DNA of 4,887 nt, taken from the IMG/VR virus record IMGVR_UViG_2734482592_000014. One strand, written 5' to 3'. Positions 1-4,887 of the stretch are shown here, one piece after another (positions within the stretch are counted from its first letter, which is position 1; the number at the start of each line of letters is the position of its first letter). This stretch comes from a virus (Duplodnaviria > Heunggongvirae > Uroviricota > Caudoviricetes). A model generated the notes under the pieces. That model searched no databases. It was given only the letters and a program-made list of their open reading frames with translations, and was not told the origin of the DNA. The position numbers and the translations under genes were made by a program.

Positions 1-672
1 ATGGCAGCGACGCACACACTCCCTCTGGCGTCACCGGGCATGGCACGCATCTGCCTTTACGGGGATTTGCAACGATTTGGCCGCCGCATCGACCTTCGTG
101 TGAAAACGGGTGCCGAAGCCATCCGGGCGATGGCCACACAGCTCCCTGCGTTTCGTCAGAAGCTGAGCGACGGCTGGTATCAGGTGCGTATTGCCGGGCA
201 GGATGTTAGCACGTCCGGATTAACGGCACAGTTACATGAGGCTCTGCCTGACGGCGCTGTGATTCATATTGTTCCCAGAGTCGCCGGGGCCAAGTCAGGT
301 GGTGTATTCCAGATTGTCCTGGGAGCAGCCGCCATTGCCGGATCATTCTTTACCGCCGGAGCCACCCTTGCAGCATGGGGGGCTGCCATTGGTGCCGGTG
401 GTATGACCGGCATTCTGTTTTCTCTCGGTGCCAGTATGGTGCTCGGCGGTGTGGCTCAGATGCTGGCACCGAAAGCCAGAACTCCCCGCACACAGACAAC
501 GGATAACGGTAAGCAGAACACCTATTTCTCCTCACTGGATAACATGGTTGCCCAGGGCAATGTTATGCCTGTTCTGTATGGTGAAATGCGCGTGGGGTCA
601 CGTGTGGTATCTCAGGAGATCAGCACGGCAGACGAAGGGGACGGTGGTCAGGTTGTGGTGATTGGTCGCTGA
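1..672 (+). CDS. I: Tail tip assembly protein I (lambda gpI family), complete
   Basis: ATG at 1 to TGA at 670-672, 223 aa. The translation MAATHTLPLASPGMARICLYGDLQRFGRRIDLRVK...GDGGQVVVIGR matches my recollection of phage lambda gpI almost residue for residue, including the Gly/Ala-rich hydrophobic segment (GAAAIAGSFFTAGATLAAWGAAIGAGGMTGILFSLGASMVLGG). Position directly upstream of J matches lambda gene order. Its RBS would lie upstream of the window. Confidence 0.9.
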   Translation: MAATHTLPLASPGMARICLYGDLQRFGRRIDLRVKTGAEAIRAMATQLPAFRQKLSDGWYQVRIAGQDVSTSGLTAQLHEALPDGAVIHIVPRVAGAKSGGVFQIVLGAAAIAGSFFTAGATLAAWGAAIGAGGMTGILFSLGASMVLGGVAQMLAPKARTPRTQTTDNGKQNTYFSSLDNMVAQGNVMPVLYGEMRVGSRVVSQEISTADEGDGGQVVVIGR

Positions 673-732: not shown

Positions 733-3700
733 ATGGGTAAAGGCAGCAGTAAGGGGCATACCCCGCGCGAAGCGAAGGACAACCTGAAGTCCACGCAGCT
801 GCTGAGTGTGATCGATGCCATCAGTGAAGGGCCGGTTGAAGGTCCGGTGGATGGATTAAAAAGCGTGCTGCTGAACAGTACGCCGGTGCTGGACAATGAG
901 GGGAATACCAACATCTCCGGCGTCACGGTGGTGTTCCGGGCAGGTGAGCAGGAGCAGTCACCGCCGGAGGGATTTGAATCCTCCGGCTCCGAGACGGTGC
1001 TGGGTACGGAAGTGAAATATGACACGCCGATCACCCGGACCATCACGTCGGCAAACATTGACCGACTGCGTTTTACCTTCGGTGTACAGGCACTGGTGGA
1101 AACCACCTCAAAGGGAGACAGGAATCCGTCTGAAGTTCGCCTGCTGGTTCAGATACAGCGTAACGGTGGCTGGGTGACGGAAAAAGACATCACCATTAAG
1201 GGCAAAACCACCTCGCAGTATCTGGCCTCGGTGGTGGTGGATAACCTGCCGCCGCGCCCGTTTAATATCCGGATGCGCAGAATGACGCCGGACAGCACCA
1301 CAGACCAGCTGCAGAACAAAACGCTCTGGTCGTCATACACCGAAATCATCGATGTGAAACAGTGCTACCCGAACACGGCACTGGTCGGCGTACAGGTGGA
1401 TTCGGAGCAGTTCGGCAGCCAGCAGGTGAGCCGTAATTATCATCTTCGCGGGCGCATTCTGCAGGTGCCGTCGAACTATAATCCGCAGACGCGGCAATAC
1501 AGCGGTATCTGGGACGGAACGTTAAAACCGGCATACAGCAACAACATGGCCTGGTGTCTGTGGGATATGCTGACCCATCCGCGCTATGGCATGGGGAAAC
1601 GTCTTGGTGCGGCAGATGTGGATAAATGGGCGCTGTATGTCATCGGCCAGTACTGTGACCAGTCGGTGCCGGACGGCTTTGGCAGCACGGAGCCGCGCAT
1701 CACCTGTAATGCCTGGCTGACCACACAGCGCAAGGCGTGGGATGTGCTCAGTGATTTCTGCTCGGCGATGCGCTGTATGCCGGTATGGAACGGGCAGACG
1801 CTGACATTCGTGCAGGACCGACAGTCGGATAAGGTGTGGGCCTATAACCGCAGTAATGTGGTGATGCCGGATGATGGCGCGCCGTTCCGCTACAGCTTCA
1901 GCGCCCTGAAAGACCGCCATAATGCCGTTGAGGTGAACTGGATTGACCCGNNNNNNNNNNNNNNNNNNNNNNNNNNNNNNNNNNNNNNNNNNNNNNNNNN
2001 NNNNNNNNNNNNNNNNNNNNNNNNNNNNNNNNNNNNNNNNNNNNNNNNNNNNNNNNNNNNNNNNNNNNNNNNNNNNNNNNNNNNNNNNNNNNNNNNNNNN
2101 NNNNNNNNNNNNNNNNNNNNNNNNNNNNNNNNNNNNNNNNNNNNNNNNNNNNNTCAGCGTGGGTGCTGAAGGGCTTCGTCATGTACCGGGCGATGTCATT
2201 GAAATCTGTGATGATGACTATGCGGGTATCAGCATCGGCGGGCGCGTGCTGGNNNNNNNNNNNNNNNNNNNNNNNNNNNNNNNNNNAACGGCTGGGAGAC
2301 GGCGACAGAGCTTGTGGAGGACACGCAGGCCATTGCCCGTTACGGTCGTAACGTCACGAAGATGGATGCCTTTGGCTGTACCAGCCGGGGGCAGGCACAC
2401 CGCGCAGGGCTGTGGCTGATTAAAACAGAACTGCTGGAAACGCAGACCGTGGACTTCAGCGTGGGCGCAGAAGGGCTTCGCCATGTGCCGGGCGATGTCA
2501 TTGAAATCTGTGATGATGACTATGCCGGTATCAGCACCGGCGGGCGCGTGCTGGCGGTAAACAGCCAGACCCGGACGCTGACGCTCGACCGTGAAATCAC
2601 GCTGCCATCCTCCGGTACCATGCTGATAAGCCTGGTTGACGGAAGTGGCAATCCGGTCAGCGTGGAGGTTCAGTCCGTCACCGACGGCGTGAAGGTGAAA
2701 GTGAGCCGTGTTCCTGACGGCGTTGCTGAATACAGCGTGTGGGGGCTGAAGCTGCCGACGTTGCGCCAGCGCCTGTTCCGCTGTGTGAGTATCCGTGAGA
2801 ACGANNNNNNNNNNNNNNNNNNNNNNNNNNNNNNNNNNNNNNNNNNNNNNNNNNNNNNNNNNNNNNNNNNNNNNNNNNNNNNNNNNNNNNNNNNNNNNNN
2901 NNNNNNNNNNNNNNNNNNNNNNNNNNNNNNNNNNNNNNNNNNNNNNNNNNNNNNNNNNNNNNNNNNNNNNNNNNNNNNNNNNNNNNNNNNNNNNNNNNNN
3001 NNNNNNNNNNNNNNNNNNNNNNNNNNNNNNNNNNNNNNNNNNNNNNNNNNNNNNNNNNNNNNNNNNNNNNNNNNNNNNNNNNNNNNNNNNNNNNNNNNNN
3101 NNNNGCTGACAGTCCGGGCGGTAAATGCCTGGGGACAGCAGGGCGATCCGGCGTCGGTATCGTTCAGGATTGCCGCACCGGTAGCACCGTCGCGGATTGA
3201 NNNNNNNNNNNNNNNNNNNNNNNNNNNNNNNNNNNNNNNNNNNNNNNNNNNNNNNNNNNNNNNNNNNNNNNNNNNNNNNNNNNNNNNNNNNNNNNNNNNN
3301 NNNNNNNNNNNNNNNNNNNNNNNNNNNNNNNNNNNNNNNNNNNNNNNNNNNNNNNNNNNNNNNNNNNNNNNNNNNNNNNNNNNNNNNNNNNNNNNNNNNN
3401 NNNNNNNNNNNNNNNNNNNNNNNNNNNNNNNNNNNNNNNNNNNNNNNNNNCGTGGATAACGGGGCGCACTTTGACGGCGACCAGAGCGGCACGGTGAATG
3501 GTGTCACGCCGCCAGCGGTGCAGCACCTGACTGCCGAAGTCACCGCAGACAGCGGGGAATATCAGGTGCTGGCGCGCTGGGACACGCCGAAGGTGGTGAA
3601 GGGCGTGAGCTTCCTGCTCCGTCTGACCGTAACAGCGGATGACGGCAGTGAGCGGCTGGTCAGCACGGCCCGGACGACGGAAACCACTTACCGCTTCACA

Positions 3701-4887
3701 CAACTGGCGCTGGGGAACTACAGGCTGACAGTCCGGGCAGTAAATGCGTGGGGGCAGCAGGGCGATCCGGCGTCGGTATCGTTCCGGATTGCCGCACCGG
3801 CAGCGCTGTCGCGGATTGAGCTGACGCCGGGCTATTTTCAGATAACCGCCACGCCGCATCTTGCGGTTTATGATCCGACGGTACAGTTTGAGTTCTGGTT
3901 CTCGGAAAAGCGGATTGCGGATATCAGGCAGGTTGAAACCACAGCACGCTATCTTGGCACGGCGCTGTACTGGATAGCCGCCAGTATCAATATCAAACCG
4001 GGCCATGATTATTACTTTTATATCCGCAGTGTGAACACCGTTGGCAAATCGGCATTCGTGGAGGCTGTTGGTCAGCCGAGTGATGATGCATCCGGTTATC
4101 TGGATTTTTTCAAAGGCGAGATAGGGAAAACCCATCTGGCTCAGGAGCTGTGGACGCAGATTGATAACGGTCAGCTTGCGCCTGACCTGGCTGAAATCAG
4201 GACGTCCATTACGGATGTCAGCAATGAAATCACGCAGACCGTCAATAAGAAACTGGAAGACCAGAGTGCGGCAATTCAGCAGATACAGAAGGTTCAGGTT
4301 GATACAAATAATAACCTGAACAGCATGTGGGCTGTGAAGCTGCAGCAGATGCAGGACGGACGCCTTTATATCGCGGGTATTGGTGCCGGTATTGAGAACA
4401 CCCCTGACGGCATGCAGAGTCAGGTGCTGCTGGCGGCGGACAGGATTGCGATGGTTAATCCTGCGAATGGCAACACAAAACCGATGTTTGTTGGTCAGGG
4501 CGATCAGATATTCATGAACGACGTGTTCCTGAAACGCCTGACGGCCCCCACCATTACCAGCGGTGGAAATCCATCGGCATTTTCCCTGACTCCGGACGGA
4601 AAGCTGACCGCTAAAAATGCGGATATCAGTGGCAGTGTGAATGCGAACGCCGGGACGCTCAACAATGTCACGGTAAATGAAAACTGTACGATTAAGGGCA
4701 TGCTGGAGGCGACTCAGGTCAGAGGTGACTTCGTTAAAGCTGTATCCAAATCATTTCCGAAACAGGCTGGTACGTGGGGTAACACGGAAACACCAAACGG
4801 GACGGTTACAGTCACCATAAGCGATGATCATAACTTTGACCGCCAGATTATTATTCCGCCCATTATTTTTAACGGTATAGCGTATGA
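733..4887 (+). CDS. J: Tail tip attachment / host specificity protein J (lambda gpJ family); 5' end complete, 3' end beyond window, interrupted by N runs
   Basis: ATG at 733 sits 8 nt after GGAG (721-724). Readable segments: A 733-1950 ([34 protein letters not shown]...[11 protein letters not shown], phase 1), B 2287-2804 ([20 protein letters not shown]...[10 protein letters not shown], phase 1), C 3452-4887 ([25 protein letters not shown]...IIFNGIAY, phase 2, no stop before window end). All three are collinear with lambda gpJ as I recall it. Phase differs between B and C because the N-run lengths are not true lengths. Confidence 0.9.
1951..2153. other. N run (203 nt), assembly gap or masked sequence inside J
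   Basis: Contiguous n characters; starts on a J codon boundary after ...WIDP. Confidence 0.95.
2154..2252 (+). repeat. 99-nt island between gaps: diverged copy of J segment 2456-2554
   Basis: Manual alignment to 2456-2554 gives 6 mismatches in 99 nt. In the coding phase ([32 protein letters not shown]) 5 are synonymous and 1 changes Thr to Ile. The island is in phase 2, while flanking J segments A and B are in phase 1. Confidence 0.85.
2253..2286. other. N run (34 nt), assembly gap or masked sequence
   Basis: Contiguous n characters. Confidence 0.95.
2805..3104. other. N run (exactly 300 nt), assembly gap or masked sequence inside J
   Basis: Contiguous n characters; round length suggests a placeholder or estimated gap. 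Confidence 0.95.
3105..3200 (+). repeat. 96-nt island between gaps: diverged copy of J segment 3724-3819
   Basis: Manual alignment to 3724-3819 gives 7 mismatches in 96 nt. In coding phase ([31 protein letters not shown]) 5 are synonymous and 2 are nonsynonymous (V/A, P/L versus AAPAALSRI in the main copy). Confidence 0.85.
3201..3450. other. N run (exactly 250 nt), assembly gap or masked sequence inside J
   Basis: Contiguous n characters; round length suggests a placeholder or estimated gap. Confidence 0.95.

Follow-up and report, generated by a model that had tools for sequence, protein, structure and literature searches.

The tail gene region in IMG/VR virus record IMGVR_UViG_2734482592_000014 raises the question of whether a lambda-type J gene has been interrupted and internally duplicated during phage evolution, or whether an intact J gene has been misrepresented in the course of genome assembly. 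Within the 4,887-nt stretch that we analyzed (referred to here as the window), J is broken by four runs of Ns that enclose two islands of J sequence, each of which closely resembles a segment of J lying further downstream. Comparison with contiguously assembled J genes leads us to conclude that both the interruptions and the internal duplications are very probably an artefact of short-read scaffolding and not a biological feature.

The identity of the genes is evident from their products and their order. The window begins with an intact gene I (1–672, forward strand), which encodes the counterpart of the lambda tail assembly protein I and matches the Pfam family Lambda_tail_I (PF06805; E = 3.4e-27). 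Its exact 223-aa product is recorded in 605 blocks of public assemblies, and the matches are annotated as 'tail assembly protein'. J follows on the same strand and is open from an ATG at 733; its 5' part (733–1950) comprises codons 1–406 and ends in NWIDP. J is the tail tip attachment or host-specificity protein, and the top matches, from complete E. coli genomes and phages, are annotated as J. Six Pfam domains are present in order (FNIII-A_GpJ, Phage-tail_3, Ig_J, Ig_J_second, Phage_Tail_Tip, and Ig_GpJ_C), which is the series seen in Lambda J / TipJ proteins, and the intact J of a contiguous relative (L040, see below) has an identical domain list. The gene order likewise agrees with that of Lambda J / TipJ: gene I is upstream of J in the window, the comparators have the order K-I-J-lom, and, among the matches listed, J comes after the C40 peptidase K and a tail assembly protein. 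Neither lom nor the J stop codon is reached in the window, which ends 268 nt short of the latter, as judged against the complete E. coli genome L001. An Rfam search gave no structured-RNA match in the window.

We note that the lambda-type ATG of gene I forms the first three letters of the window, and that in relatives this ATG overlaps the end of K. The RefSeq start of the gene I orthologue in L001 is at the position corresponding to the GTG at 100, giving a product of 190 aa, and across many public assemblies the 190-aa form of the gene I product is recorded in 2416 blocks, compared with the 605 of the 223-aa form.

The J coding sequence lies in three long segments. Segment A (1–1950) contains gene I and ends with the 5' part of J described above. 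Segment B (2287–2804, forward strand) corresponds to J codons ~408–580, beginning NGWETA and ending SIREN, and segment C (3451–4887, forward strand) corresponds to codons ~600–1077, beginning VDNGAHFDG, and carries the Ig_J, Ig_J_second, Phage_Tail_Tip, and Ig_GpJ_C domains. Between A and B there is an N run of 203 nt (1951–2153), the 99-nt island 1 (2154–2252, forward strand), and a second N run of 34 nt (2253–2286); between B and C there is an N run of 300 nt (2805–3104), the 96-nt island 2 (3105–3200, forward strand), and a final N run of 250 nt (3201–3450). We read all four N runs as scaffold gaps. Island 1 aligns without gaps to 2456–2554, at an offset of 302 nt and with six mismatches (93.9% identity), and island 2 aligns to 3724–3819, at an offset of 619 nt and with seven mismatches (92.7% identity). 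Because BLAST E-values for matches of the island type are ~1e-39 to 1e-47, these similarities are not attributable to chance; the next best repeats in the window are only 21–33 nt long, with 71–76% identity. Both islands are bounded by Ns on both sides and align end to end with their nearby downstream copies (their twins), as is seen with misplaced variant contigs. A preliminary description of this DNA had noted the four N runs and the two enclosed islands, which we confirm, and had recognized the islands as near-copies of J sequence 302 and 619 nt downstream. It had also correctly described the context of these junctions in lambda gpJ, in which WIDP is followed by a single codon and then NGWETA, and SIREN is followed after 19 residues by VDNGAHFDG. 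Of the two junction intervals it reported, that of 336 nt stands and the second requires a small correction to 646 nt, the 647 nt reported being the coordinate difference between 2804 and 3451.

The spacing of these segments differs consistently from that in contiguous J genes. Using 60-nt anchors, we determined the junction lengths in 39 contiguous comparators: 34 metagenome contigs, four loci on complete E. coli chromosomes, and lambda itself. Between A and B there are 3 nt in all 38 measurable comparators, versus 336 nt in the window, and between B and C there are 54 nt in 36 of 36, versus 646 nt in the window. Among the matches listed from complete E. coli genomes and the top phages, the region spans ~3959–3962 nt, 925 nt less than the window, and the two junction excesses (336 − 3 and 646 − 54) add up to 925 nt, such that the extra length of the window is accounted for exactly. 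Each island sequence is matched at most once per comparator and, where measurable, at the position of the downstream twin: 172 nt past the end of A for island 1 (38 of 38 comparators) and 327 nt past the end of B for island 2 (all 29 measurable comparators). A degenerate 99-mer that represents either island 1 or its twin matched 34 contigs in the metagenome_contigs collection, each in single copy and none with N runs; the same degenerate 99-mer gave no matches in genome_contigs. Contiguous assemblies of the locus have neither the duplications nor the extra length, a pattern that characterizes false duplications.

The domain structure of the protein leads to the same view. The Phage-tail_3 domain (PF13550) is split over the first gap complex, with profile positions 1–76 in the J 5' part in segment A, following FNIII-A_GpJ, and positions 78–162 in segment B; the sequence missing between them is thus equivalent to one profile position, and not to 112 codons. 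Island 2 corresponds to Ig_J profile positions 80–104 and lies ahead of segment C, which carries Ig_J positions 1–104 again. The codon missing between A and B is polymorphic among the comparators, being GAT in 15, AAC in 13, AAT in 11, and GAC in three, and the missing 54 nt begin with either C or T; the contig breaks at 1950/2287 and 2804/3451 coincide with allele polymorphisms.

The reading frames are affected in a related way. The J frame is the same through A and B (mod 3 = 1). In island 1 the J-like frame begins at 2156 (mod 3 = 2), out of phase with both, so that the J frame entering this region meets a stop at 2167. The frame of segment C, starting at 3452 (mod 3 = 2), is also out of phase with A and B, because the excess of 592 nt (646 − 54) at the second junction is not a multiple of three. 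A protein look-up with the literal N-spanning product of 733–2169 found none on record. When the nearest contiguous relative is used to supply 3 nt and 54 nt in place of the two gap complexes, the repaired ORF has 1076 codons and no stops, and is 99.4% identical to the intact 1165-aa J of L042. As written, the window does not have the uninterrupted ORF of ~1130–1230 aa that is typical of Lambda J / TipJ, and such an ORF is recovered only by this repair.

The islands have close relatives among other J alleles. Seven complete E. coli genomes have a J that is 100% identical to island 2, and in L003, the one genome of the seven that was fetched, this match occupies the orthologous site. For island 1, the J genes of three complete E. 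coli genomes show 99% identity, also at the orthologous site. Neither 5426 complete E. coli genomes nor three collection scans yielded an exact match to the full island-1 haplotype (best match, 99%), and an exact scan of viral_contigs with island 1 gave zero matches; every one of its variant states is nonetheless present in other alleles. The haplotype is of the L042 type at offsets 1–55 and of the type found in L002, L019, and L034 at offsets 27–99. Island 1 may represent either a natural recombinant or a chimeric assembly path. Relative to their twins in the window, the codon differences are five synonymous and one nonsynonymous for island 1, and five synonymous and two nonsynonymous for island 2, and this total of ten synonymous and three nonsynonymous codon changes indicates that the islands evolved as functional J coding sequence. 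The divergence of 6–7% is an ordinary distance between J alleles, and the best island match in most genomes falls in the 90–95% identity band. Because the islands match alleles that are circulating elsewhere, they do not have the character expected of a local duplicate that has diverged in place. Island 2 and segment B might share an origin in one allele: L003 matches segment B at 98.8% identity in addition to matching island 2 at 100%, but in other comparators with an equally close B the identity to island 2 is only 93.8%.

These observations bear directly on the possibility that J contains genuine partial tandem duplications and that the N runs mark repeat sequence that the assembly failed to resolve, which we consider very unlikely. 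Such an event could place the islands upstream of their twins and in the same orientation, as they are, and the first inserted interval of 336 nt is a multiple of 3, a property that we count against the artefact explanation. However, none of the contiguous comparators has an expansion at either site (38 for the first junction and 36 for the second), and the full-length matches listed from complete genomes and phages span only ~3960 nt. For a perfect tandem duplication the N runs should measure 172 + 0 nt and 327 + 0 nt, but in the window they measure 203 + 34 nt and 300 + 250 nt. Moreover, the coding frame of island 1 is out of phase and leads to the stop at 2167, a frameshift results from the second interval, and the copies match the alleles of other strains exactly or within one base, which would not be so for divergence in place. 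There is a similarly slim chance that the arrangement is real in a broader sense, with the window containing a J gene, or a decaying prophage pseudogene, that has two diverged partial internal duplications. Were this so, recombination between co-resident lambdoid prophages might have inserted stretches of a second J allele ahead of the sites to which they are homologous.

The preferred reading, a scaffolding artefact, is also consistent with the composition of the three long segments. Using the exact gene I protein, we found four contiguous assemblies (L040 to L043), which include the complete chromosome CP104423.1. These match segment A with 99.8% identity (four mismatches) and segment C with 100% identity over 1437 nt, but match segment B with only 94.8% identity, the 28 mismatches being spread over 2322 to 2784 and identity being complete over 35 nt at the start of B and 20 nt at its end. 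Other E. coli J genes match B with up to 99.0% identity, and no contiguous comparator matches A, B, and C all at ≥99% identity. Segment B probably derives from a J allele other than that of A and C and seems to behave like one arm of an allele 'bubble', and the scaffold backbone is probably chimeric, or else represents a new natural recombinant. The contrast between A and C on the one hand and B on the other in their match to L040 to L043 implies that no fewer than two J alleles, and probably three, were present in the sample.

A plausible route to such a scaffold is as follows. The window would be a piece of a short-read scaffold across the I–J tail genes of a lambda-like phage or prophage, derived from a sample with two or more similar J alleles, present either as several lambdoid prophages in one genome or as a mixed population. 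The assembly would have broken into separate contigs where the alleles differ, and the scaffolder would have lined up in series pieces that belong in parallel. Two ~100-nt contigs from other J alleles would have been positioned from read-pair spacing, about as far behind the preceding contig as they belong, and the contig truly covering the island position (B in the first instance, then C) would have been pushed behind, with the intervening spaces filled with Ns. Island 1 would then be a piece orthologous to 2456–2554 that is misplaced upstream of B, and island 2 a piece orthologous to 3724–3819 that is misplaced upstream of C. The real gene would be a normal, uninterrupted J of the 1165-aa type, from which the window lacks one codon (at 1950–2287) and 54 nt (at 2804–3451).

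The lengths of the N runs that precede the islands (203 and 300 nt) are similar to the true distances from the ends of A and B to the proper island sites (172 and 327 nt, respectively), and from this fit we infer both placement by read-pair distance and the behavior of the assembler. The N runs that follow the islands (34 and 250 nt) have no quantitative fit in this model. A simple model in which the islands have flanks of k−1 nt is at odds with the island ends, where identity continues for 10 and 17 nt past the outer differences from B.

The circumstances needed for such an artefact are found in E. coli. J-like sequence is present at a median of three places per complete E. coli genome, and at up to 14, and in the complete genome NZ_CP070007.1 one locus has a J resembling the backbone and another has a J resembling island 1 (98% identity). 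Short reads have been reported to perform poorly with homologous prophage content (PMC10925052), and lambdoid prophages in short-read E. coli assemblies resemble the window in that similar multicopy modules are poorly resolved; the usual fragmentation of prophages takes the form of contig breaks or collapsed repeats, whereas here pieces of other alleles have apparently been inserted as well. The closest precedent that we note is that of 'duplicated contained contigs', in which a divergent copy is assembled apart from its counterpart and set beside its true location, mimicking a duplication (Kelley and Salzberg 2010, Genome Biol 11:R28; PMC2864568). The likeness is in the small contig that aligns fully to its neighbor and is placed in a nearby gap, and in the cause, which is the presence of two divergent copies of one locus in the sample. 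The cases described by Kelley and Salzberg differ in that they concern diploid vertebrate haplotypes with at least 96% identity, whereas those in the window would be paralogous or co-resident phage J alleles with 93–94% identity, and contigs of only ~100 nt.

The main proposals of the preliminary description hold up well against these data. That this is not what a contiguous J gene looks like is borne out by the 3- and 54-nt junctions in all measured comparators, and the suggestion of a scaffold built across similar J genes draws support from the junction spacing, the single-copy island sites, the allele matches, the reading frames, and the split of PF13550. The idea that short contigs from another J allele were placed inside estimated gaps is favored by the matches to circulating alleles and by the lengths of the N runs that precede the islands.

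We also weighed whether the N runs could be length-preserving masks, imposed by those who prepared the data for low quality, for low coverage, or deliberately, over real insertions in J. Two of the runs have round lengths (300 and 250 nt), and one public collection is described as having a few masked stretches reading as N, although this is a description and not a test. Masking nonetheless leaves unexplained why the unmasked islands are copies of downstream J sequence from other alleles, and why the lengths of the runs that precede them track the true distances; in addition, J would have to contain 925 nt of concealed sequence that no relative has, and the gene would be broken. We regard masking as highly improbable.

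A diversity-generating or cassette-type system, in which the islands are template or donor copies for varying J, would suit the presence of near-identical ~100-nt repeats in a phage receptor-binding tail gene, but has almost no likelihood, given that the differences between island 1 and its copy (T>C, T>A, T>C, A>G, G>C, and T>C) are not adenine-specific, the repeats are in the conserved middle of J and not at its receptor-binding end, the window contains no reverse transcriptase, invertase, or inverted repeat, and the sequences are single copy in relatives. As specific candidates, a diversity-generating retroelement with a template and variable repeat pair was rejected, with substitutions that affect all four bases and run in both directions and no reverse transcriptase domain in the window, as was an inversion or shufflon system, with no inverted repeats of ≥20 nt in the window.

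On the scaffolding explanation, the real object would be an ordinary lambda-type J that has been misrepresented, and the arrangement in the window would reveal nothing new about phage biology. Taken at face value, the scaffold presents a broken or 'duplicated' J, and invites a false pseudogene call and false repeats in a determinant of host range. Because the backbone probably mixes alleles, the J sequence, and any phylogeny or host-range inference drawn from the record, would be unreliable. The J sequence of the record is unfit for use as it stands, and its value is mainly as a caution.

With the junctions repaired, J can be compared with its better-characterized relatives. The repaired ORF is 95–99% identical over the first ~800 aa to lambda gpJ (NC_001416 J; 1132 aa), which is the central tail fiber or tip attachment protein, but is only 50% identical over aa 801–900 and 77% identical over aa 901–1000. 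The region encoding aa 801–1076 corresponds to ~4050–4887 of the window, and the match to Pfam Ig_GpJ_C starts where the window ends. The closer counterpart is the 1165-aa J found in prophages of the E. coli/Shigella type, as in L040 to L043, with the 99.4% identity to the L042 protein given above. Both lambda gpJ and the 1165-aa J have Pfam domain order and K-I-J-lom gene order in common with the type in the window, and both differ from it in that only the window copy is not contiguous. These comparisons suggest that the J in the window is of the 1165-aa type and not of the 1132-aa lambda type, and would thus have a different receptor-binding end. Finally, we note that the public assembly JBEAAD010000003.1 (L043, 6634–10130) has an otherwise identical J annotated as separate ORFs of 183 and 982 aa; the alignment of segment A to L043 has one gap, which suggests a frameshift or a sequencing error near the 5' end of J.
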